DNA of 64,000 bases from Gammaproteobacteria bacterium (GCA_965198875.1 CBDAPU010000001.1:643146-707145), one strand, 5' to 3'. Numbered from the stretch's first letter, positions 6,994 through 34,667 are shown. A program made the numbers and translations. Notes: generated by a model not told the origin, from the letters alone.

Positions 6994-7027
6994 CGGGAAC
7001 CTGTCTTATCCTGTACACATCAATGCC

Positions 7028-16045: not shown

Positions 16046-16084
16046 AAGCGCATAACCCCTCCACCCTTGCGGTGATTTTTCTAC

Positions 16085-16103
16085 GGTATAACGATAAACT
16101 CTT
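16085..16103. promoter_or_regulatory. candidate Fur box upstream of the TonB2 operon
   Basis: GTATAACGATAAACTCTTT matches the GATAATGATAATCATTATC consensus at about 13 of 19 positions. It lies 40 bp upstream of the first operon gene. Confidence 0.2.
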
Positions 16104-16612: not shown

Positions 16613-17662
16613 ATGATGCACCCCCAGGCTGAAACCACCGATGAGGTGTTACGGGCCTATGGCATTAAGGCCATTGAGACCCAGATCATCGATGCGGGTT
16701 TGATCAATACCACCTATCGCATCAAAGGCGACAAGGCATCGTGTTATATCCTGCAATCAGTCAATGCGAGGTTCCCTGCCGAGATAAACCATGACATTGA
16801 TATCGTCACCCGGCATCTACAGAGATCGGGCCTTATCACCCCCAGGCTGGTGTTGACCCGGGAAGGCGAGGTATTTCATCGGCGCAACAACCGGATCTGG
16901 CGCATGTTTGATTATATTGAAGGGAAGGTATTTCACCGGCTAAACGAGGCCAGGCAGGCACGGGCCGCAGGTGAGATGCTGGCGAAGGTGCATGTTGCTT
17001 TGGACCGGCTCGATGATGGGTTTGCAGCTCGCCACTCCCATGTTCATGACACACCCCGCCATCTCGCACACCTACGCGATACGCTCCTTAATAAAAGCGC
17101 TCACAGGCGATATGAGACTATCAAAGGATTGGGGGAGGCCATCTTGCAGCTCTCAAAGGGGCTTCCTCAACTGCCCGCTGTCCGGGAGAGAATGGTGCAC
17201 GGCGATCCGAAAATATCGAACTTTATTTTCTCCAGTGAGAATAACACGGCTATCTGCATGGTGGATTTCGACACACTCGGCAAAATGCCGATCTACATGG
17301 AAATAGCCGACGCCTTGCGTTCATGGTGCAACCCCTCAGGCGAAGACAGGGCTAGGGGATATTTTTCACTTAAACATTGCCATGGGGCACTGGAGGGATA
17401 CGCTAATTATGCCGCATCGCTACTGACTACTGATGAGTGGTGCGCTATTTTACCGGCCACATTAACGGTATTTATCGAGTTGGCCGCACGCTTTTGCGCC
17501 GATGCACTGAACGAGAATTACTTCTCCTGGGATGCAGAAAAATTCAGCAGCCACAGTGAACACAGTGAAATCAGGGCGCGCGGGCAACTCAATGCCGCCC
17601 ATTCGTTATTGAGTCAGTACGATGAAATCAACGGCTTAATGGCCGATCTATTCAGCCGCTAA
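16613..17662 (+). CDS. phosphotransferase-family (APH/homoserine kinase II-like) kinase
   Basis: Brenner motif HGDPKISNF and the DFDTLG Mg-binding motif. Confidence 0.6.
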   Translation: MMHPQAETTDEVLRAYGIKAIETQIIDAGLINTTYRIKGDKASCYILQSVNARFPAEINHDIDIVTRHLQRSGLITPRLVLTREGEVFHRRNNRIWRMFDYIEGKVFHRLNEARQARAAGEMLAKVHVALDRLDDGFAARHSHVHDTPRHLAHLRDTLLNKSAHRRYETIKGLGEAILQLSKGLPQLPAVRERMVHGDPKISNFIFSSENNTAICMVDFDTLGKMPIYMEIADALRSWCNPSGEDRARGYFSLKHCHGALEGYANYAASLLTTDEWCAILPATLTVFIELAARFCADALNENYFSWDAEKFSSHSEHSEIRARGQLNAAHSLLSQYDEINGLMADLFSR

Positions 17663-17707
17663 TGCGTCATGGCATTTAACAAGCTGGTGTTGTTGCAGTG
17701 AAGGAGG

Positions 17708-18373
17708 ATGACAACACTGATGACAAGGTATGAAATCAATATAGAGATTGAAGGCACTCTGGCCATGTGGTCGCGGCCAGATACGGGGTCCAGCCCGACT
17801 TCTTACCCGATACCCACCTGGTCAGCCGCCAAAGGGCTGTTTGAATCCATCGCTTTTTTCAGGGATGGACGTGCCTGGATAAACCCGACCCGTGTTGAGG
17901 TATGCAAGGCGCGTGCTTCGGCAAGCAACGGCGGCATTCATTTTCAAAAATACATGACCAACTATCGCGGGCCACTTCGTGAACCCAGCCTGATCAAGAA
18001 AAAAGCAAATTATCAACAGGCGGCCCAGGTGGTTGCCAACCCCTGCTATCGGCTCTATGCCAATATCGAAAACGGTTCGGGCAAGCCGCCGCGCTCAGGG
18101 GATAATCCAGGCCATGCACTGCAAGCCATGTTTGCGCGGCGGCTTAAAAAAGGCCAGTGCCATCACACGCCATGCCTGGGCTGGAGCGAGTTTGTGCCCC
18201 GCTACTGGGGGCAAATACGAGAGTCCACAGAAGTGGACACAGGCGTGAATGTGAATCTGGTCTCTGTATTAAAAGGCGTGTTTGATACACCCCTTCAGGG
18301 GCAATTCAAGCCGACATTTCAGCACGGAGACAATGCCTGGATTAAAGAGGGAGTGTTCCACTATGCTCAATGA
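17708..18373 (+). CDS. cas5: orphan Cas5c (type I-C Cas5d-like pre-crRNA endonuclease)
   Basis: Alignable with the two other Cas5c paralogs in this window, both in the N-terminal region (SYPIPTWSAAKGLFESI) and the C-terminal region (KKGQCHHTPCLGWSEF). AAGGAGG lies directly upstream. Confidence 0.7.
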   Translation: MTTLMTRYEINIEIEGTLAMWSRPDTGSSPTSYPIPTWSAAKGLFESIAFFRDGRAWINPTRVEVCKARASASNGGIHFQKYMTNYRGPLREPSLIKKKANYQQAAQVVANPCYRLYANIENGSGKPPRSGDNPGHALQAMFARRLKKGQCHHTPCLGWSEFVPRYWGQIRESTEVDTGVNVNLVSVLKGVFDTPLQGQFKPTFQHGDNAWIKEGVFHYAQ

Positions 18374-18547
18374 ACTTATTCTGGTTCGCAATGGTTTGGC
18401 AGCGATTGATCCTGACCGACCGAGCCCCATCCACAAGGATCTTTCCGATCCGGGATGGTTGCCTTGGGACAATCTGAATAGCGCCTTTCTCAATGCACGC
18501 TCAGGGCGATATGATCAGATGAGTATTTATGTGGATTGCCAATGCTA
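18362..18547 (+). pseudogene. possible remnant of a cas8c N-terminus (speculative)
   Basis: 61-codon ORF MLNELILVRNGL... sits immediately after the orphan cas5c, where cas8c would lie. It has weak resemblance to the M-I/L-L-x-L-x-x-Y pattern at Cas8c N-termini. Confidence 0.15.
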
Positions 18548-18604
18548 AGGTGGCGGCATTTCTATCAATACCTGTCGCTTCAAACAGCTTTCAAAGGCTG
18601 AACT

Positions 18605-21061
18605 ATGAAAAACGGGTTTATTGCCCATAAAAGAAAAAACACGGATACAGACCAGTTGCTCTCTACCCACTTGACCGAAGTGGCTGAGCTGGCCGCTGGT
18701 TTTGCAGAAAAGCTCGGCCTGACCGATGCCGGACGTTTGCTGGGTTTACTGCATGACTTTGGTAAATACAGCCATGAATTTCAGAATTACATCCAGGCAG
18801 CCACTGGCGGTATGGATCAGGATGATGAAAACTGGGTGGATGCGGATTTATTAAAGGGTAAAATCGATCACTCCAGTGCCGGTGCACAATTTATATGGAA
18901 TCGATTTAGCGGTGCTGGCGCACATAATCAAGGTGATCTGGTTGGCCAGGTTTTGGCGCTGTGCATCGCCTCTCACCATAGCGGCCTGATTGATTGTTTT
19001 GACATCAACAACAAACCAAAATTTAAGCAGCGAATGGATAAGGCGGATGACCGAACCCATCTCAAAGAGTGCAAGCAAAATGCCGATAAAGTCCTATTCA
19101 ACCGCATTGAACACCTTGCAAGCGCTCAGTTATGCAGCGACACCTTTAAGCGTATGCGGTCGGTTTCTCAGGATAACCCCGCGAAATGGTCGAAAATCGA
19201 CTGGTTTCATTTAGGCTTTTTTACCCGCTTTCTGTTCAGCACACTGATTGACGCCGACCGGCTAAACAGCGCTGAATTCGAAACGCCGAGCCGTAAACAA
19301 GACCGTTGTGAACGTGAACGCTACTTTGATTGGAGCATCGCCCAGAGCAGAGTTGAAGGCTTTATCGGCGCACTCAAACCCAGCCATCCTATCGATGGAC
19401 TAAGGCGGGATATTTCTGATCAATGCCGCCAAAAAGCACAAGGCAGGCAAGGCATCTATACGCTGACCATACCCACCGGCGGCGGCAAGACCTATGCCAG
19501 CCTTCGTTATGCGCTGCATCATGCGGCACAGCACGGGCTCGATCGGATTATTTACATCCTGCCTTACACTTCGATTATTGAGCAGAATGCAAAAGAGGTC
19601 CGCAAGGCCATTGAACGAGAAGGCGATCGATTCCCCTGGGTGCTGGAACAACACTCCAACCTGGAGCCGGACCAGCAAACCTGGCAAAGCAAGCTAATTG
19701 CCGAGAACTGGGACAGCCCCATTGTGCTCACCACCATGGTGCAGTTTCTTGAAACCTGCTTTGCGGGCGGCACGCGCAGCGTTCGGCGATTGCACCAACT
19801 GGCAAATAGCATCATTATCTTTGATGATATTCAGACCCTGCCCATTAACTGCGTACACCTGTTTTGCAATGCACTGAATTTTTTATCCGCTCACTGTAGT
19901 ACAACCGCCCTGCTCTGCACGGCGACACAGCCACTGCTCAACGAGTTAAAAAATAAAGCCAAGGGAGCGCTCGAAATACCCGCTGAAAATGAGATTGCAA
20001 GCGACGTTGCCGACCTGTTCGAGAAGTTGCACAGGGTTGATGTTGACCCCCGGATAAAAACCAAAGGCTGGCAAGTGGAGGACGTGGGGGAGTTGGCACT
20101 TGAACAGTTTACAGAAACCCAAAGCTGTCTGGTGATTGTCAACACCAAAAGCTGGGCACAGGATTTATACCAAGCCTGCCAGGATGCTTTGCCGAAAGAC
20201 GCCCTGTTTCACCTCAGCACCCACCAGTGCCCGGCACACCGCAAACAATGGCTGGATAAAATCCGCCGGCGTCTACAACAAAAACAACCGGTGTTGTGTT
20301 TCAGCACCCAGTTGATCGAAGCCGGTGTGGATATCTCCTTTGCGCGAGTGATTCGCTTTCTGGCCGGGCTGGACTCCATCGCTCAGGCGGCAGGGCGATG
20401 TAACCGTCACGGTGAAGCCGAAAAAGGGCAGGTGTTGGTGATCAACCCGGCGGAAGAGACAACCGGACTGCTGAAAGAGATTGAAGCCGGGAAAGATGCG
20501 GCCCGGCGTGTATTGGATGAGGGCTTTGACAATCTGGTGGCGCCAGCGGCGATGCGCCAGTATTTTAAGTATTACTTCCACGAACGGGCGGACGACATGG
20601 ACTACCGGCTGGATACTGCAAAACTTGGCCGCTCTGACTCCTTACTGAACCTGCTTTCAGATAACCCAAAGTCACAAGCAACTTATGCGGATCGCTGGCA
20701 GCAACAAGGAAAAATCCCTCTATTGAGCCAATCCTTTATGGAAGCCGGCAAACAATTCAAGGCCATTGAGGCCCCTACTGAAGCCGTTATTGTGCCCTTT
20801 GGTGAGGGTAAAAACATCATCGCAGAATTATGTGCTGTGGATGCTGAGTTTGACGCTGAAAAATATTATGAGCTCCTTCGGCAGGCGCAAAGTTACAGCG
20901 TCAATGTGTTTCCCAATGTATGGAAAAAGCTGCGAGAAAATAATGCAACACATGAAATCCAGCCCGGTTTGGGCATTTACCATTTGAATGAACGTTATTA
21001 CAGCGCTGACTTCGGCCTGAGCGATCAGCCCGTTGCTTTGATGGAGAATTACAACCTATGA
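18605..21061 (+). CDS. cas3: Cas3 HD nuclease-helicase (module 1)
   Basis: HD motifs (LHDFGK, ASHHSGL), helicase motif I TIPTGGGKT, and motif VI QAAGRCNRHG. Confidence 0.9.
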   Translation: MKNGFIAHKRKNTDTDQLLSTHLTEVAELAAGFAEKLGLTDAGRLLGLLHDFGKYSHEFQNYIQAATGGMDQDDENWVDADLLKGKIDHSSAGAQFIWNRFSGAGAHNQGDLVGQVLALCIASHHSGLIDCFDINNKPKFKQRMDKADDRTHLKECKQNADKVLFNRIEHLASAQLCSDTFKRMRSVSQDNPAKWSKIDWFHLGFFTRFLFSTLIDADRLNSAEFETPSRKQDRCERERYFDWSIAQSRVEGFIGALKPSHPIDGLRRDISDQCRQKAQGRQGIYTLTIPTGGGKTYASLRYALHHAAQHGLDRIIYILPYTSIIEQNAKEVRKAIEREGDRFPWVLEQHSNLEPDQQTWQSKLIAENWDSPIVLTTMVQFLETCFAGGTRSVRRLHQLANSIIIFDDIQTLPINCVHLFCNALNFLSAHCSTTALLCTATQPLLNELKNKAKGALEIPAENEIASDVADLFEKLHRVDVDPRIKTKGWQVEDVGELALEQFTETQSCLVIVNTKSWAQDLYQACQDALPKDALFHLSTHQCPAHRKQWLDKIRRRLQQKQPVLCFSTQLIEAGVDISFARVIRFLAGLDSIAQAAGRCNRHGEAEKGQVLVINPAEETTGLLKEIEAGKDAARRVLDEGFDNLVAPAAMRQYFKYYFHERADDMDYRLDTAKLGRSDSLLNLLSDNPKSQATYADRWQQQGKIPLLSQSFMEAGKQFKAIEAPTEAVIVPFGEGKNIIAELCAVDAEFDAEKYYELLRQAQSYSVNVFPNVWKKLRENNATHEIQPGLGIYHLNERYYSADFGLSDQPVALMENYNL

Positions 21062-21777
21062 ATGATCTCACACCTAAAAACACCATCAGCTTCAAACTAT
21101 CGGGGCGCTATGCCTTGTTCACTGACCCCGTCACCCGAATTGGCGGCGAGAAATGCAGCTACCATCTCCCCACCTATGAAGCCTTAAAGGGCATTCTTAA
21201 ATCCATTTACTGGAAGCCGACGCTGATCTGGGTGGTCGACAAAGTGCGGGTGATAAAACCGATTCGCACCCAGACCAAAGGCACCAAGCCTCTGGTTTGG
21301 CAAGGCGGTAACAGCCTCGCCATTTACACCTTTCTGCATGAAGTGGAATACCAGGTGCAGGCGCATTTTGTCTGGAATGAACATCGTCCTGAACTGGCAG
21401 CAGACCGCATCGACGGCAAACATTACAACATTGCCAAACGTATGTTGGAGAAAGGCGGCAGGCAGGATATTTTTCTCGGCACCCGTGATTGTCAGGGCTA
21501 TGTTGAACCCTGCCAGTTCGACGAGGGTACAGGTGCCTACGATGATCTGGGTGAACTGAGTTTTGGTTTGATGTTTCACAGCTTCGACTACCCCGATGAA
21601 ACCGGCGTGAATGAACTGCACAGTAATTTCTGGCGGGCACGCATGTGCAAGGGGACTGTCGATTTTCCACTGCCGGCGGACTGCGACCACAAGCGACCTG
21701 TCCGCAAGATGGAACCGAAACCCTTTGCATTAAACAAAAACCTGAAAAATGTTGCACAGCAGGAGACTGAATTATGA
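21058..21777 (+). CDS. cas5: Cas5c (module 1)
   Basis: Cas5d-family N-terminus (YHLPTYEALKGILKSIYWKP). Its start overlaps the cas3 stop (ATGA). Confidence 0.85.
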   Translation: MNDLTPKNTISFKLSGRYALFTDPVTRIGGEKCSYHLPTYEALKGILKSIYWKPTLIWVVDKVRVIKPIRTQTKGTKPLVWQGGNSLAIYTFLHEVEYQVQAHFVWNEHRPELAADRIDGKHYNIAKRMLEKGGRQDIFLGTRDCQGYVEPCQFDEGTGAYDDLGELSFGLMFHSFDYPDETGVNELHSNFWRARMCKGTVDFPLPADCDHKRPVRKMEPKPFALNKNLKNVAQQETEL

Positions 21778-23822
21778 GTTGGATGGCAACGCTGTATAAA
21801 ACCTATGAGCAGGCGCTGGAGCTGGACTTGCCGGAAGATGAAAAATTGATGCCAATCAGCCACACCAGGCAAAATGCTCATATTAACGTTGTGCTAGATC
21901 AGAGCGCAAGTTTTGTTAGGGCAAAAGTATTGTTCAAACACCCTGTTGTGGTTCCCGCAACCGAAGACTCTGCAAGTCGAACAGGAAAGAAGCCACCTCC
22001 GCACCCTCTTCACGACAAAATTCAATATATTGCTGGTGATTACGCAGCATTTGGGGGTAAGAAACCGCCATTTTACGATGACTATATAGAGTTGCTTAGA
22101 AACTGGTGTAATTCGGATTATAGTGATGAACTAATAGAGATTGTTCTTAATTATGTTGAAAAAGGTCGGCTGGTTTTTGATTTAATAGACGTAGGAATTT
22201 TGGCTTGCGATGAAAAAGGCAAGTTGATTACACCTGAAAAAATCGATCAGGTTAAAGAAAAATATCCTATCTTTAAATCAATACCGAAAGACCAACAAAA
22301 AGGCTACTTTGATCAGGGGGTTGCTGTTGTTTGCTGGTCAGTTGAAATTCCTGGTCGCCCTGGGAGTGACATTTGGAAAGAGCGCGTTATATCTAAAAAG
22401 TGGGTTGAGTATGACGCTTCCACTGCTGGTTTAGAAGGGGTCTGTTCAATAACTGGCGATTTCGGACCGATCAGTTTAAAGCACCCCTCAAAAATAATTC
22501 CTTCAGTACCAGGAGCAAAGCTTTTGTCGAGTGATGACATTAATGGTTTCACTTATAGGGGAAGATTTACCGATACAAAAATATCAAAAAAAGAAACTGG
22601 ACTTCAAGCATGTAATGTTGGCTTTTTAACCAGTCAAAAAGCGCACAACGCCCTGCGTTGGCTCATTGGTGAGCGCAAGCAGGTTTATCGCAATGGTGAT
22701 CAGGTTGTTGTGATCTGGGCCATTTCAGGCAAGGAAACACCCTCAGCATTTGCCGAGCTTCCCTTATCCTTTGATGAACCCTTTGAACTGAATGATGCAG
22801 GCATCACCGACAACACGAACCTGGACGCCAAGCCCGATATCTCGGTTGGGCTGGGTCAGCAGCACGGCATTGCCTTACAGCGCTATATGAAAGGCTACTA
22901 CCAGGATTTTAAAGACACGCCGACCGAAAGCATCGTCGTCATGGGCCTCGATTCCGCCACACCCGGACGCATGGCGATTACCTACTATCGGGATTTTATG
23001 GCGATGGATTATCTCGATATGACCAACCGCTGGTATCAACACCTTGTCTGGTTCCAGCGGGTTGTTAAAGAATATATCAACTCAAAAGGGAAAAAATATA
23101 CAAAGGTACGCTGGTGGCCGGGAACGCCCACACCCTGGGCTATCATGAATTGTTGTTATGGCGACATTATTAAAAGCAATGAATCACTCAAGAAACAAGT
23201 CACCGAGCGACTGCTGCCCTGTATCGTTGAGAACAAACCCATCCCTGAAGACCTGCTGCGCCTGGCCGCTCGCCGTGCCAGCAACCCGAACAGTGGGGAA
23301 CAATGGGAATGGGAAAGAAACCTGGGCGTGGCCTGTGCGCTTTACCGAGGCTTTCACCACCCCGACAGACAACCCAACCCAACTCAACAGAGGAACTACG
23401 ATATGGCCCTGGATTTAGAAAACACCTCAAGAGACTACCTGTTTGGCCGCCTGCTGGCCATTGCCGATAAAATTGAACGGGTTGCGCTAAGTTTGCGCGA
23501 TGAAAACAGACCCACGGCGTCGCAGCGGCTGATGCAGCGCTTTGCCGACCGGCCAAGCTCCACTTGGGAGAATATCGATAAACAACTGACACCCTACAGG
23601 CTACAGTTGCAAGTGTCTCGAACGGGCTTTTTAGTCAATAGAGAGAAAGAACTGGATGCGGTAACCGACTTATTTCGACCCGATGACTTTACCCGTGACG
23701 CCCCCCTAAGCGCTGAATACCTGCTGGGCTTTCACAGCCAACGTCTCGCGTTACGACCATCCGAGCAACAAGACGACAAACCAACTGACCAATCCACCGA
23801 CTCATCAACCCAGGAGGACTAA
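21774..23822 (+). CDS. cas8c: Cas8c large subunit (module 1)
   Basis: 682-aa protein between cas5c and cas7. Its C-terminal MALDLENT...GRLLAIADKIE helical region is shared with the second paralog. Confidence 0.8.
   Translation: MSWMATLYKTYEQALELDLPEDEKLMPISHTRQNAHINVVLDQSASFVRAKVLFKHPVVVPATEDSASRTGKKPPPHPLHDKIQYIAGDYAAFGGKKPPFYDDYIELLRNWCNSDYSDELIEIVLNYVEKGRLVFDLIDVGILACDEKGKLITPEKIDQVKEKYPIFKSIPKDQQKGYFDQGVAVVCWSVEIPGRPGSDIWKERVISKKWVEYDASTAGLEGVCSITGDFGPISLKHPSKIIPSVPGAKLLSSDDINGFTYRGRFTDTKISKKETGLQACNVGFLTSQKAHNALRWLIGERKQVYRNGDQVVVIWAISGKETPSAFAELPLSFDEPFELNDAGITDNTNLDAKPDISVGLGQQHGIALQRYMKGYYQDFKDTPTESIVVMGLDSATPGRMAITYYRDFMAMDYLDMTNRWYQHLVWFQRVVKEYINSKGKKYTKVRWWPGTPTPWAIMNCCYGDIIKSNESLKKQVTERLLPCIVENKPIPEDLLRLAARRASNPNSGEQWEWERNLGVACALYRGFHHPDRQPNPTQQRNYDMALDLENTSRDYLFGRLLAIADKIERVALSLRDENRPTASQRLMQRFADRPSSTWENIDKQLTPYRLQLQVSRTGFLVNREKELDAVTDLFRPDDFTRDAPLSAEYLLGFHSQRLALRPSEQQDDKPTDQSTDSSTQED
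23403..23822 (+). CDS. cas11: candidate nested cas11c (small subunit), translated from an internal in-frame start of cas8c
   Basis: Internal ATG with a GAGGA sequence 8 nt upstream. The MALDL(E/N)NT start is conserved in both cas8c paralogs. This is inferred from published type I-C biology. Confidence 0.35.
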   Translation: MALDLENTSRDYLFGRLLAIADKIERVALSLRDENRPTASQRLMQRFADRPSSTWENIDKQLTPYRLQLQVSRTGFLVNREKELDAVTDLFRPDDFTRDAPLSAEYLLGFHSQRLALRPSEQQDDKPTDQSTDSSTQED

Positions 23823-23825
23823 ACC

Positions 23826-24749
23826 ATGAGCCTGAACCATAAAATAGACTTTGCCATTATCTTAAACGTGACTAATGCCAACCCCAATGGCGACCCGCTG
23901 AGCGACAATCGCCCCAGAACCGACTACGACGGTTACGGCGAAATATCCGATGTCTGCCTGAAGCGCAAACTGCGCGACCGACTGCAAGAGCAGGGGCAGG
24001 CAATATTCGTGCAATCGGATGAAAAGAAAACGGACGGCATGACCAGCCTGCAAAATCGTGCCTACTCAGATGAATTTGGTTTGGGTAAAGACACCTTTAA
24101 TTCGAGGAAAACCAGCCCGGATGACACAGCGCGAAAAGCCTGTGATAAATGGTTCGATGTCAGAGCCTTTGGGCAATTATTTGCGTGGGGTAAGGAAAAA
24201 GGCAACTCAGCTTCAGGTGTCTCAATACCCATTAGAGGGCCAGTGACCATTCAATCGGCATTCAGCACTGTGCCAATTAGTATCACCAGTTCTCAGATTA
24301 CAAAAAGTGTCAATGCACAAGAGCCCAAGAATAAAAAAAGCGCAAATACAGAAGAGTCCGATGAAAATGGAAACAGTGATATGAGCTCAGATCGAATGGG
24401 TATGAAACACCGGGTTGATAAGGCCGTTTATGTCGCCTATGGCGCAATGACGCCGCAACTGGCGAAAAAAACCCACTTTAGCGATACCGATGCAGACCGC
24501 ATCAAGGCGTTATTACCCAGACTATTTGAAGGCGATGCCTCCTCGGCCCGACCTGAAGGCTCCATGAGCGTGGACAAGCTGATCTGGTGGCAACACAACT
24601 GCAAATCCGGCCAGTACTCATCCGCAAAGGTACATAATACCTTGAAGGAACACATCAAAGCCAAAGGACGGTTAGACACATCCAGCCTGAAACAGGCACT
24701 CAGCGACAAGTTCAGTGATTTATCCCCTGAAATCATAGAAGGCTTTTGA
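23826..24749 (+). CDS. cas7: Cas7c (Csd2) backbone protein (module 1)
   Basis: N-terminus NANPNGDP...DVCLKRKLRD is typical of Csd2. Confidence 0.85.
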   Translation: MSLNHKIDFAIILNVTNANPNGDPLSDNRPRTDYDGYGEISDVCLKRKLRDRLQEQGQAIFVQSDEKKTDGMTSLQNRAYSDEFGLGKDTFNSRKTSPDDTARKACDKWFDVRAFGQLFAWGKEKGNSASGVSIPIRGPVTIQSAFSTVPISITSSQITKSVNAQEPKNKKSANTEESDENGNSDMSSDRMGMKHRVDKAVYVAYGAMTPQLAKKTHFSDTDADRIKALLPRLFEGDASSARPEGSMSVDKLIWWQHNCKSGQYSSAKVHNTLKEHIKAKGRLDTSSLKQALSDKFSDLSPEIIEGF

Positions 24750-24897: not shown

Positions 24898-27207
24898 ATG
24901 ATGTCACTGGAAGGCAATTTAAGGACCCAATGCAACATGAAGATTGCACATGCAAAAAAAGACCATGCTGGAAAATGGTGTGAGCATGAATTAAGCCAGC
25001 ATCTGCAAAAAGTGGGTATTCTGTCTTCCACGTTTTCCAGCCATTTTGACAGCGGCGATTGGGCAAAAGCGGCAGGCGATTGGCACGACCTCGGTAAATA
25101 CCGCCCCCGGTTCCAAAATTATATACGCGATAAGTCCGGCTATGAGCGAGAAAATGCCCATGTAGAAACCACAGATCGCCCACGGCATTCTACCGCTGGC
25201 GCAATCCACGCCGTAGATCAATGGGGAGATTTTTATGGGCATATCATCGCCTACCTGATCGCCGGCCACCATGCCGGTTTGCCCGACTGGGCAGGCGGCC
25301 GGGGCGGGCTGTCCCACCGCCTGGAGGATACTGAAAGTCAGGATGAATATGAGGAGAGCCTTGAAGCTGCCGACGATTTTCCACTGCTCCATGCCAATAA
25401 GCCCGCATTGCCCGACTTTATTGATTCGCCTTATAAGTTCGCGTTATGGATGCGAATGATGTTTTCTTCGCTGGTGGATGCCGATTTTCTTGATACCGAG
25501 CAATTTATGGATCCATCAAGAACATTACAGCGAGGTGGCCGGGCGTCGTTCAATGAATTGCAGCAGCGCTTTGATGTCAAGATGGCGGAGTTAAAGACTG
25601 GCGCGGCGTCTTCACCCATGGCGATCATACGCAATGAGATACAACAGCAATGTCTCAAGGCGGCGGACTGGCGCCCCGGTCTCTTCAGCCTGACGGTACC
25701 GACGGGCGGCGGCAAAACACTGTCCAGTTTGGCGTTTGCGTTAAAACATGCCCGTATCTTCAATAAGCAAAGAATTATCTACGCTATCCCCTTTACCAGC
25801 ATTATCGAGCAGAACGCCGATGTTTTTCGTGATTTTCTTGGCGGCGATGATGCCGTACTGGAGCACCACAGCAATCTGGATGTGAGCGAGCAAAAAGAAA
25901 ACAGCCGCTCCAGGCTGGCCTCAGAAAACTGGGATGCACCAGTTGTCGTCACCACTAATGTCCAGTTGTTTGAGTCACTGCATGCAACGCGAACCAGCCG
26001 CTGCCGCAAGTTACACAACCTTGCCAACAGCATTATTATTCTGGATGAAGCACAGCAATTACCACGGGATTTTCATGCGCCCATTACGAAGGTCATGCAG
26101 CAGTTGGCGGATCATTACGGCGTGACCTGGGTCTTATGTACGGCCACTCAGCCCGTATTAACCGAGCAGCGCAGTGCTTTTAACCAGCTTCTCATGCAGG
26201 GGCTTAACCATGTCCGCGAGATTATCCAGCAGCCGGAAAGACTGGCGAAAAAACTGAACGCAAGAGTGCATGTGCAACTACCCGACCTCGGTGAACCGCC
26301 GCTATCCTGGACGGATTTGGCGGAAAAGCTGAGCGATGAAGAAGCCGTCTTGTGCATTGTCAATACCCGCCCGCAGGCACGGGAGTTATATGGACTCCTG
26401 CAAGATAAAGAGAATAGCGTACATCTTTCCGCGCAAATGTGCGCCGAGCATCGCTCCACATTGATCGAGCAGATGAAACAGCGCCTGCAAGCGAGAGTGG
26501 CCGGTGACAAGCGCCCGATACGGGTGATCAGTACGCAACTCATCGAAGCCGGTGTGGATGTCGATTTTCCGCTTGTCTACCGCGCCACGGCCGGGCTGGA
26601 TTCCATTGCCCAATCAGCAGGCCGCTGTAATCGGGAAAGTAACCTTGACGAACCGGGCAAGGTGATTGTTTTCAAGCCGGAAAAATCCAGCTTTGGGTTT
26701 TTGAGGCAGGCGGAAGATGCAACGCTTGAATTGTTGGCATGTGGACAACTGGATGAACCGCTATCACCTACGAGTTTTACCCGCTTTTTTAGACTGCTTA
26801 ACAGCAAAGGCAAACCAGACAAGCACGGCATTCTGGAATTGCTGCGTGCAAAGTGCTCTCGCGATGCACCCCTGGAAATTTATTTCAGAGAAGCTGCGGC
26901 CAAATTTCGCTTAATTGACGATAACGGCGTGTCGATTATCGTGCCCTATGTCCCTTTTGAGAAAAAAGCAAGTCCGATTCATGCGTGGTTGGCGCTGTTG
27001 GAAGAGGATGCGTCCAGAAAATGGGTTTATCGCAAGTTGCAACGCTATACGGTCACTCTGCCAGAATGGCAAGCAAACCAATTAGCTGAGTCGGGTTGTA
27101 TCGATACGGTAGCGGGGCTGCGGGTATTGCAGGACGGTTTCTATCATCCAGACCTAGGCATTTATACGCCTGATCTACAATTGTCGGGGCAGGAGTCCGT
27201 GCTATGA
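24898..27207 (+). CDS. cas3: Cas3 HD nuclease-helicase (module 2); probable start at 24937
   Basis: HD motifs (HDLGKY, AGHHAGL), TVPTGGGKT, DEAQ, and QSAGRCNR. Confidence 0.9.
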   Translation: MMSLEGNLRTQCNMKIAHAKKDHAGKWCEHELSQHLQKVGILSSTFSSHFDSGDWAKAAGDWHDLGKYRPRFQNYIRDKSGYERENAHVETTDRPRHSTAGAIHAVDQWGDFYGHIIAYLIAGHHAGLPDWAGGRGGLSHRLEDTESQDEYEESLEAADDFPLLHANKPALPDFIDSPYKFALWMRMMFSSLVDADFLDTEQFMDPSRTLQRGGRASFNELQQRFDVKMAELKTGAASSPMAIIRNEIQQQCLKAADWRPGLFSLTVPTGGGKTLSSLAFALKHARIFNKQRIIYAIPFTSIIEQNADVFRDFLGGDDAVLEHHSNLDVSEQKENSRSRLASENWDAPVVVTTNVQLFESLHATRTSRCRKLHNLANSIIILDEAQQLPRDFHAPITKVMQQLADHYGVTWVLCTATQPVLTEQRSAFNQLLMQGLNHVREIIQQPERLAKKLNARVHVQLPDLGEPPLSWTDLAEKLSDEEAVLCIVNTRPQARELYGLLQDKENSVHLSAQMCAEHRSTLIEQMKQRLQARVAGDKRPIRVISTQLIEAGVDVDFPLVYRATAGLDSIAQSAGRCNRESNLDEPGKVIVFKPEKSSFGFLRQAEDATLELLACGQLDEPLSPTSFTRFFRLLNSKGKPDKHGILELLRAKCSRDAPLEIYFREAAAKFRLIDDNGVSIIVPYVPFEKKASPIHAWLALLEEDASRKWVYRKLQRYTVTLPEWQANQLAESGCIDTVAGLRVLQDGFYHPDLGIYTPDLQLSGQESVL

Positions 27208-27428
27208 AAAACCATTGTTTCAATCCACATTCTGATGAACGAATTATTGATATTAACAATCCATTGAAATCGGATTCTATTGTGTAACCCATATCGCAAT
27301 GTTCATTTTCGAAAAATCTGTTTTGAAATGGTTCGCCTTTGTATTGAGAAAATGATGGCGCTGTTGATATCGATCCTGCGACACTTTACGCCTATGCCCA
27401 ACATCATCAAGAAAGGAAATAACACAAC

Positions 27429-28166
27429 ATGCCCAGCGAAGAACAATTTTGCCTGGAAGTCAGCGGCGACTTCGCCTGTTTTACCCGCCCGGAAATGAAG
27501 GTGGAGCGGGTGTCCTATGACGTGATAACGCCATCGGCGGCGCGGGGCATTTTTGAGGCCATTCTCTGGAAGCCCGCCATCCGCTGGCAGGTCGAGAAAA
27601 TTGAGGTGCTGAAACCCATCAAATGGGTCAGCATACGGCGCAATGAAATCGATTCGGTTTTAGCTGAGAGTAATATCAAAAAAGCGATGAAGGGCGGCGC
27701 TATGCCCGCCTTGTATATCGACGAAATTAAGCCAGATGGAAAACTGAAACATAGACAGCAACGCGCCGGTTTGTTTTTGCGCGACTTGGCCTATCGGCTT
27801 TATGCCCGTTTTCAGCTTCAGGATGACAGCGCTCATCAGCATCGTTTTCCACACCTGCACTGTGACGATGCGCCTTGTGAAAACAGCTATCCCAAGTTTG
27901 CCGACATGTTCAAGCGCCGTGCCCGCAAGGGTCAGTGTTTTAACCAGCCCTACCTGGGCACCCGGGAGTTTTCCGCCAGCTTCCGCTATATCGAGCCAGG
28001 CCATACAACGGAGGCACCTATCAAAGAAGACCGCGACCTGAGCTGGATGCTGTATGACATGGATTACAACAAGCCCGAAGACCCGCAACCCCTGTTTTTC
28101 AATGCCGTAATGGAAAATGGCATCGTCCGGGTTCCCGACAGAGAAAGCGGCGAGGTACGGGGATGA
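27429..28166 (+). CDS. cas5: Cas5c (module 2)
   Basis: YDVITPSAARGIFEAILWKP and KGQCFNQPYLGTREF are Cas5d-family motifs. Confidence 0.85.
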   Translation: MPSEEQFCLEVSGDFACFTRPEMKVERVSYDVITPSAARGIFEAILWKPAIRWQVEKIEVLKPIKWVSIRRNEIDSVLAESNIKKAMKGGAMPALYIDEIKPDGKLKHRQQRAGLFLRDLAYRLYARFQLQDDSAHQHRFPHLHCDDAPCENSYPKFADMFKRRARKGQCFNQPYLGTREFSASFRYIEPGHTTEAPIKEDRDLSWMLYDMDYNKPEDPQPLFFNAVMENGIVRVPDRESGEVRG

Positions 28167-29947
28167 TTTTACAATCACTGGTGGAATACTATGAGCGCAA
28201 CAAAACAAATCTTCCCAAGTTTGGGTTTTCGGATGTAGAAATTCCGTATTTAATTGTAATTGATCAGAACGGAAAGTTTATTGCCTTGCAAAGCACCAAG
28301 GAAAAGCAAGGCAAAAAAGAAAAAGCTCAAACTTATACGGTTCCCAGCCTGCCAAAAACGAGGAAAGCCAGTGTTGATATTGTGTCTCAAGGAAAAACGG
28401 CCGGAGTTTGCTGGGATCATTTTGGCTACCTTACCGGTCAGGCTAAACTGGACAAGAAATCTAATTCATACCTTCCAAAAGATATTGAATTAGCCGAAGC
28501 GCAAATGCAGGGTTTTAAATGCAAAATCGCAATGCTAAAAGAAGCACTGCCGAGTGTGGTTGAGCTAGAGGCGATACAGAAGTTTTATCTAAACGATGAG
28601 AACATGGAACAGTTGCGCGCTTCTGAAGAGTGGCCAAATTTAATAAAAAAAGATGGGCAATCCGTAGCATTTCGGTTAGCGGGCTCTGACCGATTGGCAT
28701 GTCAATCTGAAGAAGTTATTAACTATCTGCTTTCAAATATGGAGGAAGAAGAGGATGGTTTCTGCTTGGTAAAGGGCATTGAGTCTGAAATAGCCAGAAC
28801 ACATGAAGCAATCAAGTATATTGGCGGAACTAACCCTAAACTTGTTTCGTTTAATGAAAAGGCGTTCGAGTCCTATGGAAAAAAACAAAGTTTCAACTCA
28901 CCAATAAGTGCGCGCGCATCGTTTGAATACAGTACGGCACTAAACCATATGCTCAAGGACACCTCTCAAAACAAATTTAAAGTAGCGAGCAACGAATTTG
29001 TCTGCTGGTCGGAGCGTGGTTCAGCGTTGGAAGAATGGATGCCCGTCTTTATGAGTACAGATGACACCGAAGCAGGTATCAATGCCGTGGAAGGCTTGTT
29101 TGACAGCATCCACAATGGAGCCTATCAAAAGCCCGATGGCAAGGACCGCTTTTACTTGCTGGGGCTGGCCCCCAATTCTGCCCGCATCATGGTGCGCTTC
29201 TGGCAGGTGGGAACCGTTGCCCAGTTCTCTGAAAATATCGCCAAATGGTTTAAAGATATTGAGATTGATGGCGTGGAAAAATTTGGTTATCCACCACTCA
29301 AAGAATTGCTCAGCTCAACAGCACTGCAAGGCGAGGACGACAAAGTGCCGCCCAACCTGCCTGGCGCGGTAGTAACGGCCATCCTCAACGGCACACCTTT
29401 GCCTGATAGCTTAATGCAAGGGGTTATTCGTCGCATAAAAGCCGAGGCCGCCGTAAAGAAAGACAAAAAGACCAATAAACCGGTAGAGAATGTTTCACCC
29501 AACCGCGCCGCCTTGATCAAGGCGTGTTTGAACCGCCAGATTCGTCAATCACAACTATCATTAACGGAGCTTGCTATGGCACTTGATTTGAACAACACCG
29601 ATACCTCCTATGTGCTCGGCCGATGGTTCGCCACCCTGGAAAAAATACAGGAAGAATCACACCCGGGCATCAATGCAACCATTAAAGACCGCTATTACGG
29701 CGCGATCAGCAGCAATCCGGTCAACGTGTTTGGCATTCTTGATCGGCTCAAGAATCATCATTTAGCCAAACTTGAAAAAGGTCAACGCATCAACAAGGAA
29801 AGGCTGCTGGGCGAGATTGTCGGCAAGCTGCCTGCCCGGCTGCCCAATCGGCTGTCGTTATCGGAACAAGGCAGTTTTGCGGTTGGCTACTACCACCAGC
29901 GCCAGCACCTCTACCCCCAAGAAAAATCTGACCAGCCAACTTCTTAA
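28163..29947 (+). CDS. cas8c: Cas8c large subunit (module 2)
   Basis: 594-aa protein in the canonical position, with a C-terminal MALDLNNT...GRWFATLEKIQ region. Confidence 0.8.
   Translation: MILQSLVEYYERNKTNLPKFGFSDVEIPYLIVIDQNGKFIALQSTKEKQGKKEKAQTYTVPSLPKTRKASVDIVSQGKTAGVCWDHFGYLTGQAKLDKKSNSYLPKDIELAEAQMQGFKCKIAMLKEALPSVVELEAIQKFYLNDENMEQLRASEEWPNLIKKDGQSVAFRLAGSDRLACQSEEVINYLLSNMEEEEDGFCLVKGIESEIARTHEAIKYIGGTNPKLVSFNEKAFESYGKKQSFNSPISARASFEYSTALNHMLKDTSQNKFKVASNEFVCWSERGSALEEWMPVFMSTDDTEAGINAVEGLFDSIHNGAYQKPDGKDRFYLLGLAPNSARIMVRFWQVGTVAQFSENIAKWFKDIEIDGVEKFGYPPLKELLSSTALQGEDDKVPPNLPGAVVTAILNGTPLPDSLMQGVIRRIKAEAAVKKDKKTNKPVENVSPNRAALIKACLNRQIRQSQLSLTELAMALDLNNTDTSYVLGRWFATLEKIQEESHPGINATIKDRYYGAISSNPVNVFGILDRLKNHHLAKLEKGQRINKERLLGEIVGKLPARLPNRLSLSEQGSFAVGYYHQRQHLYPQEKSDQPTS
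29576..29947 (+). CDS. cas11: candidate nested cas11c (module 2)
   Basis: Internal in-frame ATG at 29576 with GGAG 8 nt upstream, encoding a 123-aa C-terminal helical domain. Confidence 0.35.
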   Translation: MALDLNNTDTSYVLGRWFATLEKIQEESHPGINATIKDRYYGAISSNPVNVFGILDRLKNHHLAKLEKGQRINKERLLGEIVGKLPARLPNRLSLSEQGSFAVGYYHQRQHLYPQEKSDQPTS

Positions 29948-29960
29948 ATCACCTACCTGA

Positions 29961-30833
29961 ATGAGGAGAAAAAACATGAGCCTGAATAACCGCTACGATT
30001 TTGTGTATCTGTTTGATGTCAAAGACGGCAACCCCAACGGCGACCCGGATGCGGGCAATATGCCGCGTGTCGACCCGGAAACCGGGCAGGGGTTAGTAAC
30101 TGATGTCTGCCTGAAACGCAAGGTGCGTAACTTTGTGGAAATGACCCAGGCGGACACGCCGAGACACAATATTTTTATTCGGGAGAAAGCCGTTCTTAAT
30201 AATCTGATTGCGGAGGCACACGAGCAGGAAGACGTTAAAGACAAGGAAAAAGGCGCGAGAACTGCCGCTGCGAGAGACTGGATGTGCGAGCAGTATTATG
30301 ACATTCGAGCCTTTGGCGCGGTCATGAGTACGGGAGTGAATGCCGGGCAGGTGCGCGGCCCCATCCAAATCACCTTCTCGCGCTCCATTGATCCCATCTT
30401 TGCCCAGGAGCATTCCATCACCCGCATGGCCGTTGCAACTGAGGCGGAAGCAGAAAAACAATCCGGGGACAATCGCACCATGGGACGCAAGGCAACCGTG
30501 CCCTATGGCCTGTATCGCTGCCACGGGTTTATTTCAGCACACCTGGCCGCCCAAACTGGCTTTGACGATGATGATTTAACATTATTCTGGCAGGCGTTAG
30601 GCAATATGTTTGATCACGACCGCTCCGCCGCACGCGGCGAAATGACCGCTCGCGGTCTCTATGTTTTCAAGCACGACAGCAAGCTGGGCAATGCCCAGGC
30701 CCACGCCCTTTTTGACCGCATCACAGTTTCCAGAGTAGCAGACGAAGCGCCCCGAGCGTTTACCGACTACCGGATTTCCGTCAACGAAGATGATATGCCC
30801 GCAGGCGTCCAACTGATCACTGAGTTCGCATAG
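29961..30833 (+). CDS. cas7: Cas7c (Csd2) (module 2); probable start at 29976
   Basis: MSLNNRYDF...GNPNGDP...[10 protein letters not shown]. Confidence 0.85.
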
Positions 30834-30983: not shown

Positions 30984-31003
30984 TTAAGTATTGATCACCC
31001 GAA

Positions 31004-31666
31004 ATGCCGCCCGCCTCAGGGAAAAACAACCGCTGGTTTAGCGATAAGGATGATATGGACGACTACCTGCCCCTCTCCGCCCTGCAACACTGCGCCTATT
31101 GCCCGCGCCAGTTTGCGCTGATCCATGTTGAACGGGCCTGGGCGGAAAACCGCTTCACCGCCGAGGGACGTATTCTGCACGAGCGGGTGGATTCGGGCGG
31201 GCGGGAACAGCGCGGCACCTTGCGTTACGAGCGCAGTGTCCAGTTGGTTTCCGAGCGCTATCGCATCCAGGGCAAAATGGACTTGCTGGAAATCGAGTGC
31301 ACCGAGCCGCCGCGTTATTTCCCCGTTGAATACAAACGCGGCAAGCCCAAGCTGGAAGACTGGGACAAAATACAACTCTGCGCCCAGGCGCTCTGTATTG
31401 AGGAGATGAAAAACACGCAGGTGACGGAAGGCGCTATCTGGTACTGGCAGGTGCGGCGGCGCGAGGCCGTGGCGCTGGACGACAGCCTTCGACAGGCCAC
31501 GCTCAGCACCATCGAACAAGCCGCCAAGATCCTCGCCAGTGGCCGCACCCCGCCACCCATCAACAACAAGAAACTGTGTCGCGCCTGCTCCCTGGTCGAC
31601 CTCTGCCAGCCACACGCCTTCCGGCAGGACTGGTCGGCGCGCTATATGGCGCAGTTGGGCGAATGA
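31004..31666 (+). CDS. cas4: Cas4 RecB-like nuclease with Fe-S cluster (possible start at 31055)
   Basis: N-terminal Cys (HCAYCPRQF) and the C-terminal CRACSLVDLC cluster cysteines. Confidence 0.85.
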   Translation: MPPASGKNNRWFSDKDDMDDYLPLSALQHCAYCPRQFALIHVERAWAENRFTAEGRILHERVDSGGREQRGTLRYERSVQLVSERYRIQGKMDLLEIECTEPPRYFPVEYKRGKPKLEDWDKIQLCAQALCIEEMKNTQVTEGAIWYWQVRRREAVALDDSLRQATLSTIEQAAKILASGRTPPPINNKKLCRACSLVDLCQPHAFRQDWSARYMAQLGE

Positions 31667-32679
31667 AAAAACTGCTCAATACCCTCTACATCACCCGCCA
31701 GGAAAGCTATCTGCACAAGGAGCGGGAAACCATCGTCATCAAACAGGGCGATGAAAAACTGGGACAGTTTCCGGCGATCAATATCGCCAATATTCTCTGC
31801 TTTGGCCAGGTCTCGGTATCGCCGTTTTTAATGGGCTACTGTGCCGAAAACAACATCGGCCTGAGCTTTTATACCGAATATGGCCGTTATCTGGCCCGCG
31901 TGGCAGGCAAACCGGTGGGCAATGTGTTGTTGCGAAGAGCGCAGTATCGCTGGGCGGATAATGAGGCGCAGTGCAATGCCATTGCCCGCCTGATGGTTGC
32001 GGCAAAAATCGCCAACAGTCGCCAGGTGCTGCAACGGGAAATACGCAACCACGGACAGAACCCGAGCCTGACCGAGGCCATCGACAAACTTTCCGTCAGT
32101 TGCCGCTGGGCCAAACAGGCCGGACGTGTCGACGAAGCCCGAGGTATGGAAGGCGAAGCGGCGGCGGTGTATTTCGGCGTCTTTCACGAACTGGTGCGCA
32201 GGCCGGAATTTACCTTTGCCGGTCGGGTTCGTCGCCCGCCGACGGACCCGGTCAATGCCCTGCTGTCGTTCACTTACTCACTGATCACGCAAGAATGCAT
32301 CTCCGCACTGGTCGGTGTCGGGCTCGACCCCTACGTCGGCTTTCTCCACAAAGACCGCCCCGGGCGGGCCAGCCTGGCGCTGGATTTACTGGAGGAGTTC
32401 AGAGCACCCTGGGCGGATCGTTTTGTACTGACGCTGATCAACCGCAACCAACTGGCTTTACAGGATTTTGTCACCGAAGCGGGCGGCGCGGTGCGTCTCG
32501 CTGATGAGGCCAGAAAGCAATTTCTCGCCGCCTACCAGGAGCGCAAGCAGGTGGAGATCATGCACCCTTACTTAAAAGAGTCGATTGCCGTCGGCTTGTT
32601 GCCGCATTGTCAGGCGATGCTGTTAGCGCGACACATTCGCGGCGATACAGCATACTACCCACCCTTTCTGGCCAAATGA
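31663..32679 (+). CDS. cas1: Cas1 integrase (the ORF-track start at 31576 is probably too long)
   Basis: MKKLLNTLYITRQESYL is a typical Cas1 N-terminus. ATGA overlap with the cas4 stop. Confidence 0.9.
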   Translation: MKKLLNTLYITRQESYLHKERETIVIKQGDEKLGQFPAINIANILCFGQVSVSPFLMGYCAENNIGLSFYTEYGRYLARVAGKPVGNVLLRRAQYRWADNEAQCNAIARLMVAAKIANSRQVLQREIRNHGQNPSLTEAIDKLSVSCRWAKQAGRVDEARGMEGEAAAVYFGVFHELVRRPEFTFAGRVRRPPTDPVNALLSFTYSLITQECISALVGVGLDPYVGFLHKDRPGRASLALDLLEEFRAPWADRFVLTLINRNQLALQDFVTEAGGAVRLADEARKQFLAAYQERKQVEIMHPYLKESIAVGLLPHCQAMLLARHIRGDTAYYPPFLAK

Positions 32680-32972
32680 TGCTGGTTCTGGTCACCTATG
32701 ACGTCAGTGTGATTTCTGCAGGCGGGCAGCGGCGCCTTCGGAACATTGCCAAAGTATGCCTTGACTATGGCGTGCGCGTGCAGAACTCCGTCTTCGAATG
32801 CGAAGTGGAACCGGCGCAGTTCACCGCCTTCAAAGCTGAACTGGAAGCGCTGTATAATCCGGCGGAGGACAGCCTGCGCTTTTATTTTTTGGGCAAAAAC
32901 GGCAGACAACGAGTCGAACACCTGGGCGCCAAAGCCGTCGCTGATCCCCTGCGGGACAAACTGATTCTGTAA
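32676..32972 (+). CDS. cas2: Cas2
   Basis: MMLVLVTYDVS is a typical Cas2 start. ATGA overlap with the cas1 stop. Confidence 0.85.
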   Translation: MMLVLVTYDVSVISAGGQRRLRNIAKVCLDYGVRVQNSVFECEVEPAQFTAFKAELEALYNPAEDSLRFYFLGKNGRQRVEHLGAKAVADPLRDKLIL

Positions 32973-33149: not shown

Positions 33150-34667
33150 GTCGCGCCCCTCGCGGGCGCGTGGATTGAAACGGATTGATTAAAGAATGGT
33201 GGGGGGGCATAGACTGTCGCGCCCCTCGCGGGCGCGTGGATTGAAACTTAGACAAGATCACAAACCCAACACCAATCGGCGGTCGCGCCCCTCGCGGGCG
33301 CGTGGATTGAAACCCCATCCACCTGCACCACCAGAATTGCCTAAATGAGTCGCGCCCCTCGCGGGCGCGTGGATTGAAACCCCCAGTCAAGGCTATTTGC
33401 ATGACTGGATAACCGTCGCGCCCCTCGCGGGCGCGTGGATTGAAACAGATTAAAAGTTTCGGCGACAGATCCGGGCTGGAGTCGCGCCCCTCGCGGGCGC
33501 GTGGATTGAAACTGATCGTGAGCAAAAGGATATGCCTGAAATCATCGTCGCGCCCCTCGCGGGCGCGTGGATTGAAACCTGCAAAACATTTAATGGCTTA
33601 TATGCTGATAGGCTGTCGCGCCCCTCGCGGGCGCGTGGATTGAAACTTATCTCCTCTTGGTTAATGTTTATTTTCTTCGGTCGCGCCCCTCGCGGGCGCG
33701 TGGATTGAAACATCCTTGTTTATGATTTCAGGAACCCATTCTGAAAGTCGCGCCCCTCGCGGGCGCGTGGATTGAAACAATAAGAGTTATGGCGCAGTCT
33801 GGCATCGGTTTAAGTCGCGCCCCTCGCGGGCGCGTGGATTGAAACCGTCACTACAGGCGTTAATGACTTTCTGCAACTAGTCGCGCCCCTCGCGGGCGCG
33901 TGGATTGAAACAATCGTGCGCTTCATGGACGGCCATAATCTCGACGGTCGCGCCCCTCGCGGGCGCGTGGATTGAAACCCCCAGTCAAGGCTATTTGCAT
34001 GACTGGATAACCGTCGCGCCCCTCGCGGGCGCGTGGATTGAAACCATCAAGGCAACTGGGAGTTATTGCGGGCAACGGGTCGCGCCCCTCGCGGGCGCGT
34101 GGATTGAAACGCTATCCGAGCAGGCCATAAATCCTAAGAGCAAAGTCGCGCCCCTCGCGGGCGCGTGGATTGAAACAATCCAGTTGTCAATCGACCTGTC
34201 GCAGAAAACCGTCGCGCCCCTCGCGGGCGCGTGGATTGAAACAGGGAAGGATCGCTGGCTAAACACTTGAAGAGAAGTCGCGCCCCTCGCGGGCGCGTGG
34301 ATTGAAACACTTTTGATCAGTTTTAAAACAAAAAAAAGCAGTGTCGCGCCCCTCGCGGGCGCGTGGATTGAAACAATCGTGCGCTTCATGGACGGCCATA
34401 ATCTCGACGGTCGCGCCCCTCGCGGGCGCGTGGATTGAAACCCTCGCGGGCGCGTGGATTGAAACAATCGCCCTTAATTCAACTGTTCTCAACATATCTA
34501 TAGGTCGCGCCCCTCGCGGGCGCGTGGATTGAAACTTAACACTAACCTTATGAGCAGGTCGCCGCAGTCGTCGCGCCCCTCGCGGGCGCGTGGATTGAAA
34601 CTGCTCTCGGACTCTCAATCTGTCAACATCCTCCTGTCGCGCCCCTCGCGGGCGCGTGGATTGAAAC
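33150..34667 (+). CRISPR. Type I-C CRISPR array: 23 copies of the 32-bp repeat GTCGCGCCCCTCGCGGGCGCGTGGATTGAAAC plus one 24-nt truncated repeat
   Basis: Repeats begin at 33150, 33216, 33282, 33349, 33415, 33481, 33547, 33615, 33680, 33747, 33814, 33880, 33947, 34013, 34079, 34145, 34211, 34277, 34343, 34410, 34504, 34570 and 34636. The partial repeat is at 34442-34465. Spacers are 33-38 bp. Spacer 4 equals spacer 13, and spacer 12 equals spacer 19. Confidence 0.97.

Follow-up and report, generated by a model that had tools for sequence, protein, structure and literature searches.

An intact cas5 gene and a truncated cas8c as the probable remains of a divergent type I-C module in a gammaproteobacterial CRISPR locus

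Introduction

Cas5c (Cas5d) is the pre-crRNA endonuclease and the 5'-handle subunit of the type I-C Cascade, with reference proteins from B. halodurans (4F3M), X. oryzae (3VZI), S. mutans (SMU1763/4R0J) and D. vulgaris (7KHA), as well as 8G9S/8G9T. Its catalytic triad is given as Tyr46/Lys116/His117 in B. halodurans and Tyr50/Lys120/His121 in S. mutans (PMC8524198, PMC3973291), the Lys being reported as the sole invariant residue of the three (PMC8524198). The canonical gene order of the type is cas3-cas5-cas8c-cas7-cas4-cas1-cas2. Two type I-C effector clusters, cas3cas5cas8cas7 and cas3cas5cas8cas7cas4cas1cas2, are described in Vibrio anguillarum PF7 (PMC6360697). In the 2025 classification the only derivative of type I-C named in the main text is transposon-associated, and the supplementary or extended data of that work may list the variant treated here (PMC12669027). 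A literature search on orphan, solo or stand-alone cas5 genes and on unusual I-C gene arrangements returned nothing relevant.

The window, that is, the whole stretch of 64,000 nt analyzed here, belongs to a genome of 2.48 Mb in 2 contigs with a completeness of 97%. It carries two complete canonical I-C effector modules in tandem (a and b, table 1), which share 26-33% identity and have one cas4-cas1-cas2 set and one 23-repeat array in common. Upstream of them lie a further cas5 gene, hereafter cas5x, and a short ORF of 61 codons. In an earlier note, made from the sequence of the window, cas5x was considered a third Cas5c paralog and the short ORF a possible decayed 5' end of cas8c, and the pair was interpreted either as the remnant of a third module or as a stand-alone crRNA endonuclease. 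With the remnant of cas5x counted in, the single array of this locus has had three I-C lineages on it.

Table 1. Features of the cas5x region and of the neighboring CRISPR locus (coordinates of the window)
Feature	Coordinates	Strand	Basis or remark
APH-family phosphotransferase (kinase)	16613..17662		Pfam APH, 88.4 bits; upstream of cas5x
Shine-Dalgarno-like AAGGAGG	17701..17707	+	Read directly
cas5x, intact Cas5 gene of a divergent type I-C variant lineage	17708..18373	+	Profiles, homologues, hhalign, AF2/Foldseek
cas8c stub, matching codons 1-31 of the variant-type large subunit gene	18363..18455	+	BLASTP, tblastn, HMM
Deletion or recombination junction	18455..18456		Sister-strain contigs
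Tail of the stub ORF by read-through (codons 32-61 and the stop codon)	18456..18548	+	Matches nothing
Canonical type I-C effector module a (cas3, cas5c, cas8c, cas7c)	18605..24749	+	Profiles; context, outside the remnant
Canonical type I-C effector module b (cas3, cas5c, cas8c, cas7c)	24898..30833	+	Profiles; context
cas4-cas1-cas2	31004..32969	+	Adaptation genes at the right end of the old locus, colinear with their counterparts in variant-type loci
CRISPR array, 23 identical 32-nt repeats of I-C type	33150..34667	+	Repeat search

Results

The cas5x Gene and Its Protein

The frame of cas5x is open over 221 aa. The motif AAGGAGG, which had been regarded as a strong Shine-Dalgarno sequence, is real, but it touches the ATG at 17708 with zero spacer, whereas a second ATG, at 17720, is found 12 nt downstream of the motif. 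Since the DNA homology to L004, a variant I-C locus of a Woeseiaceae MAG, begins at 17720 and this ATG is also the start in most homologues, the true product may be of 217 aa.

The protein lies above the curated cut-offs of Pfam PF09704 Cas_Cas5d (34.9 bits; cut-off 23) and TIGR02593 (Cas5 N-terminal, 20.1 bits; cut-off 17.8), in agreement with the claim that this ORF encodes a Cas5. It remains under the cut-off of the Cas5c equivalog TIGR01876 (38 vs. 85 bits), of which only positions 1-136 of 203 were matched; the canonical Cas5a and Cas5b of the window reach 244.6 and 207.1 bits, respectively. Similarly, the PADLOC Cas5c profile (PDLC00948) gives 64.8 bits for Cas5x and 207-224 bits for the two canonical proteins. 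Cas5x shares 28% identity with Cas5a and Cas5b, and is a separate lineage rather than a close paralog of these two. In hhalign, the Cas5x profile was aligned with four canonical Cas5c over 203 columns (probability 99.4, E 2e-21), and its comparison with the PDB gave E values of 1e-14 to 1e-10.

The AlphaFold2 model of Cas5x (pLDDT 86.5, pTM 0.84) was compared with known structures by Foldseek. Ranks 1-11 are all type I-C Cas5 (Cas5c/Cas5d) chains, that is, 3VZI, 8DEJ, 3KG4, 7KHA, 4F3M, 8G9S/T, 3VZH and 4R0J (TMq 0.60-0.71, E 2.7e-13 to 7.9e-9, 215-232 columns), and the Cas5 chains of types I-B and I-E rank behind them (TMq 0.38-0.54). Cas5x is thus a member of the Cas5 superfamily by profile match, with a predicted Cas5/RRM-type fold across its full length.

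The database search returned 411 homologues at E<=0.001 out of 451 candidates, and cas5x is therefore not a chance ORF. Among the 120 homologues listed, identity ranges from 54 to 92% and the length is mostly 210-225 aa. When 54 homologues were aligned, Cas5x was found to have the consensus residue at all 65 of the 65 columns with at least 90% conservation. Its full-length similarity and these conserved positions place Cas5x in a variant lineage of type I-C.

The positions of the catalytic triad were read in three alignments, namely, the profile against 3VZI and 8G9T, a MAFFT alignment with the Cas5c of the window, and hhalign. The Tyr position is occupied by Ala49, which is nearly invariant in the lineage. 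Depending on the alignment, the Lys-His pair corresponds to His136-Ala137 or to Ala137-Leu138; the Lys is absent in both cases, and His136 is invariant in 55 out of 55 sequences. The canonical Tyr/Lys/His triad is accordingly not kept in the Cas5x lineage, and the conservation of the Cas5d catalytic residues, suggested for checking in the earlier note, was not found. By its TIGR01876 score and by its triad positions alike, Cas5x falls outside the canonical Cas5c/Cas5d equivalog.

The 61-Codon ORF

The short ORF (beginning with MLNELILVRNGL) overlaps the stop of cas5x by 11 nt and is present as it had been described, except that, with its stop codon included, it ends one base further, at 18548. 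As a whole it found no match in Pfam, NCBIfam or PADLOC, and its identity therefore came solely from the comparison with the neighbors of cas5x in other genomes. By BLASTP, its residues 1-31 are 61-65% identical to the proteins of 701-741 aa encoded downstream of cas5x. They align to residues 1-31 in L004 and L005 and to residues 28-58 in L007, where the ORF call is longer and starts further upstream, and identity is lower in L008-L010. When the Cas8c of L004 was compared by tblastn with the whole 2.48-Mb genome, the sole match was 18363-18455 (E 7.7e-5). An HMM of 60 Cas8c proteins matched these 31 residues, at positions 1-30, with 14.4 bits (E 5.8e-7 at Z=1, i.e., for one sequence). In a search for longer proteins containing the stub, one was returned, the 719-aa full-length Cas8c P0126, with 28 of 31 residues identical over the stub. 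Judged by this similarity, codons 1-31 represent the N-terminus of a variant-type Cas8c.

Codons 32-61 have no match to any family in the same three libraries. The possibility that they derive from the C-terminus of a variant Cas3 was rejected, since the best local score against the last 60 residues of 57 proteins was 32, with a shuffled-maximum mean of 30.3 (sd 4.9). Neither a variant-type cas7 nor a variant-type cas3 was found anywhere in the genome, and a complete variant module is thus not present.

Loci of the Cas5x Lineage

In a scan of one genome per species, 166 out of 171 pattern-matched stretches encode a Cas5x relative, and the best 80 loci were kept. According to gene maps labelled with the proteins of the window, their usual order is cas5x, a Cas8c of ~700 aa, Cas7 and Cas3, followed mostly by Cas4, Cas1 and Cas2. 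The large subunit of L004 matches the PADLOC profile PDLC01562 ("Cas8c, CAS-I-C") end to end with 397.9 bits and has no NCBIfam match; some relatives bear a precomputed Pfam label Cas_Csd1. The Cas7 and Cas3 of L004 show 25-27% identity to the canonical ones of the window.

The presence of cas8c could be judged in 70 of the 80 loci (at least 2200 nt downstream), the remaining 10 being too short. In 65 of them cas8c is a single full-length ORF directly after cas5x (63 passed the first filter, and L054 and L066 were added on inspection), in five it is in two pieces with 98-99% model coverage, and none is without it. Because the Cas8c HMM was built from 60 ORFs of the same loci that it counted, this count rests mainly on ORF lengths and positions. 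The five split cases (L009 8572-12366, L035, L053, L059 and L065) are an indication that the variant cas8c has been disrupted repeatedly. In L009, ORFs of 453 and 448 aa are located between the two pieces and may be an insertion.

No Cas6 was seen in the variant loci searched (gene maps and scanned extra genes), and Cas5x is therefore presumably their processing enzyme. The extra genes scanned between cas3 and cas4 encode RhuM, Bro-N, a 23S rRNA IVP-like protein and a DUF4143 ATPase. Upstream of cas5x, an ORF6N-domain protein is found in one cluster. On the same strand, a BLAST cluster of 11 ORFs also precedes cas5x, and both members scanned are HTH-WYL-WCX regulators. Another BLAST cluster consists of small ORFs that are likewise located upstream, in four loci, the scanned one (L005) being a HIRAN-domain protein. 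In L005, the upstream genes are at 6376-7371 and 7453-7905. In the window this spot is occupied by the APH-family kinase, which the earlier note had correctly named as a phosphotransferase-family gene. Since the kinase has no match to any ORF in the 80 cas5x loci (E<=1e-3), it was treated as an unrelated neighbor.

Seven of the 80 loci (L014 681-1229, L043 7454-7996, L025, L038, L059, L068 and L070) have, directly upstream of cas5x, a small ORF of 92-206 aa with homology to the HD-nuclease part at the N-terminus of Cas3. In those of the seven that are long enough to show it (counted as four, with L043, L059 and L070 named and L014 excepted), a full Cas3 is still present after cas7. Part of the variant lineage may thus have a split arrangement of the cas3'' type.

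A search of 40 related genomes with Cas5x matched one other genome (G036, 75% identity) and none of the 24 from the same family, and the metagenome scan gave only one, distant match (34% identity). The closest Cas5x among the 120 listed is P0001 (92% identity), on a contig of 212,913 nt. No Cas8c partner from this contig is among the 41 Cas8c matches, so some relatives may share the truncation.

Colinearity of the Locus Ends with Variant Loci

Two blocks of the window are colinear with L004 at the DNA level (blastn). The one, 17720-18416 (L004 8001-8697, 72.6%), spans cas5x and the start of cas8c. The other, 31056-33512 (L004 14167-16622, 73.3%), spans cas4, cas1, cas2 and the start of the array. 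The respective proteins of window and L004 share 73% (Cas4), 83.5% (Cas1) and 86.6% (Cas2) identity, and the repeat of the window has 2 differences in 32 positions to the repeats of L004 and L005. The Cas1 proteins located beside canonical I-C modules are only 53.5% (L006) and 60.5% (G041) identical to that of the window. As the flanks are colinear and the middle is not, both ends are parts of a single old locus of the variant type, the intervening 12.5 kb being of different descent.

Between the stop of cas7b and cas4, an element of 150 nt (30834-30983) is flanked at its ends by inverted repeats of 21 nt, with 1 mismatch. This element is a single copy in the genome, without similarity to the matching spacers of L004, L005 and G041, and may be a hairpin, a small mobile element or the scar of a junction. 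The whole cas7b-cas4 spacer (30834-31060) likewise showed no significant similarity to the corresponding spacers of these three loci. The scan of 16000-19000 for promoters and terminators gave three sites of each kind, not above the shuffled expectation (3.6 and 2.6, respectively). Further downstream, an ORF of 1010 aa (40220-43252) contains, at 41136-42292, a long run of degenerate tandem repeats, whose periods are 18-228 nt and in which GCC/GAG/AAA codons (Ala/Glu/Lys) abound.

The Junction and the Sister Strains

Parts of the window occur in five public sequencing runs, none of them recorded as RNA, and four of the runs were aligned over 16500-21500. Contigs from X1, X3 and X4 (three runs, two samples, one study) have 95.5-97% nucleotide identity to the window, with about 96.5-97% over cas5x, and diverge from it exactly after 18455, the last base of codon 31. 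Past this base the sister sequence reads in frame K-Q-N-L-L-R-V-V-L-A, which equals residues 32-41 of P0126 and fits the K-x-N-L-L-R-V-V-L of the family, and X4 record 20 reaches 589 nt beyond the junction. The decayed cas8c 5' end suspected in the earlier note is borne out by this continuation together with the match of codons 1-31. The truncation is a real strain difference, and a recent one, since sister contigs at 95-97% identity still continue into cas8c past 18455.

The window-type junction is bridged over 18398-18548 by X3 record 10 (151 nt, 2 other letters), from the second sample. The depth in X1 is about 66 (65.7) for the window-type contig and 140-230 for the sister pieces; at position 18449 the letter of the window accounts for a depth of 67.5 out of 299.2.

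A contig of 6649 nt with cas3a at ~95.5% identity is present in the same run as cas8c-carrying sister contigs. Sister contigs with cas3a can be aligned with the window only from about 18508 on, and this one leaves it upstream of that position. Its loose end before 18508 (30 letters, read by eye) has frames unlike the C-termini of variant Cas3, giving no support for a cas3x abutting cas3a. The depths of the sister cas8c and cas3a contigs are similar, if unequal (5.87 vs. 4.83 in X4; 19.5 vs. 22-25 in X3), and the two sets of contigs need not come from a single genome.

Discussion

Origin of the cas5x Remnant

The cas5 gene and the short ORF probably represent the left end of a third, divergent module of type I-C, the rest of which was lost by a recent deletion. 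The remnant of a third module, one of the two possibilities raised in the earlier note, is favored by the stub itself, by the cas8c that always follows the cas5 of this lineage and by the longer cas8c of the sister strains. In the ancestor, the variant module would have preceded the two canonical I-C effector modules, all three being stacked in tandem on one array. Some 5 kb, comprising the variant cas8c from codon 32 onward together with cas7 and cas3, would then have been deleted, leaving cas5x and a 61-codon fusion ORF in which cas8c reads into unrelated sequence up to a stop. Loss of a variant module in this manner is ordinary turnover of CRISPR loci. A simple deletion from a three-module ancestor is what we infer; a recombination of two different loci would give the same junction.

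An analogue of the proposed ancestor exists in G041. In this genome, cas5x-cas8c-cas7-cas3, a Cas4 fragment of 55 aa, the canonical cas3-cas5c-cas8c-cas7c-cas4-cas1 and an array of 116 repeats follow each other on one strand. The Cas4 fragment is apparently the scar of a lost adaptation module. The two loci registered there (L088, G041:C1:2376000-2392000, reverse strand, and L007) place a variant effector module directly upstream of a complete canonical I-C locus.

What speaks against a remnant is that cas5x shows no decay, with all 65 conserved columns kept, an open frame and a Shine-Dalgarno-like motif near. Under the deletion, the gene would be intact because the event is recent and not through a retained function of its own. 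Lacking its Cas8c and Cas7 partners, and with each canonical module supplying its own Cas5c, Cas5x would most likely have no role in interference.

Alternatively, a solo Cas5 could have been kept by selection, binding or cleaving the resident repeat and feeding crRNAs to the canonical Cascade(s), or regulating them. The same intactness and the Shine-Dalgarno-like motif fit such a role, as does the colinearity of the array, its leader side and the adaptation genes with the variant loci, by which the resident repeat is that of the old variant locus. Moreover, the variant loci share the repeat class and the 3' ATTGAAAC handle with canonical I-C, which makes the cross-use of the repeat chemically plausible. 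Nevertheless, strains that are 95-97% identical differ in the deletion, so an intact cas5x is the null expectation and uninformative on selection. A cas5x without cas8c occurs in none of the 70 judged loci, and both canonical modules have a full-scoring Cas5c of their own. With only 28% identity to Cas5a and Cas5b, Cas5x is not expected to fit into their Cascades. In addition, the triad positions read Ala49 and His136-Ala137/Leu138, that is, the Lys described as invariant (PMC8524198) is missing. The stand-alone crRNA endonuclease of the earlier note is therefore not upheld, and retention by selection in general seems unlikely. Somewhat more daring still is a picture of fast effector-module turnover on a single array, with lineages x, a and b (25-33% identity) stacked and different modules kept by different strains; in its boldest form, Cas5x would be retained as a processing and 5'-handle factor for the resident repeat, with an alternative active site around His136, and would hand crRNAs to foreign Cascades. 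This is quite unlikely in our judgment.

The order of events could also have been different, if a pure variant locus received the canonical modules by insertion or recombination and they replaced cas8c-cas7-cas3 in one step, without a three-module ancestor. Three observations would agree with such a swap. L004 and L005, both variant-only, are equally identical to the window on either flank; modules a and b are related neither to the variant module nor to one another (26-33%); and the sister cas3a contig leaves the window upstream of 18508. On the contrary, the longer cas8c and cas3a are present in the same runs with similar values of identity and depth, as would fit a single sister genome that has all three modules, and G041 shows that a tandem of variant and canonical modules exists. 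The swap is thus improbable, and it differs from the deletion only in the order of events, the gene being a remnant under both.

It is hardly credible that the junction is a chimera between strains of a metagenome, with no genome having cas5x beside cas3a. Several strains do coexist in the runs, and in X1 the window type has a depth of about 66 against 140-230 for the sister; however, the junction is bridged by X3 record 10 in a second sample, the X1 depth for the letter of the window at 18449 (67.5) agrees with that of the window-type contig (65.7), and the genome consists of 2 contigs at 97% completeness. The deletion from a tandem of three modules remains the preferred explanation.

As a gene, cas5x is ordinary, a leftover Cas5 of a variant which the profile libraries already assign to I-C. 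The locus, though, is a dated example of CRISPR effector turnover, with the junction mapped to the base and the longer cas8c found in sister strains of the same samples. Two unrelated effector modules of canonical I-C type now use the adaptation module and the array of the old locus. The analysis also flags a large Cas5 lineage (166 relatives in the scan of one genome per species) that lacks the canonical Cas5c triad. As no Cas6 was seen in the loci searched either, the way in which systems of this lineage produce crRNA becomes a testable question.

Comparison with Known Systems

Compared with Cas5c/Cas5d, Cas5x is alike in its full-length homology and its predicted fold, and the loci of the lineage resemble those of canonical Cas5c in their repeat class and in that no Cas6 was seen. 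It differs in falling below the TIGR01876 cut-off, in its low identity (28%) to the Cas5c of the window and in the changed triad. In the Cas5x lineage cas3 is placed after cas7 and not before cas5 as in the canonical order. Unlike the Cas5c of canonical I-C systems, the Cas5x of the window has lost its Cas8c and Cas7 partners.

The closest loci are those of the variant type, such as L004 and L005, with cas5x 74% and the stub 61-65% identical and with both DNA flanks colinear. In contrast to them, the window is without cas8c from codon 32, without the variant cas7 and cas3, and has two canonical effector modules instead.

Several divergent I-C interference modules with one adaptation module and array are a feature that the window shares with V. 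anguillarum PF7, as described in PMC6360697, and with G041. PF7 differs, according to the same source, in that its clusters are divergently transcribed and both canonical. G041 retains the whole variant module, and its scar is the Cas4 fragment, whereas the window retains two canonical modules and its scar is cas5x with the cas8c stub.
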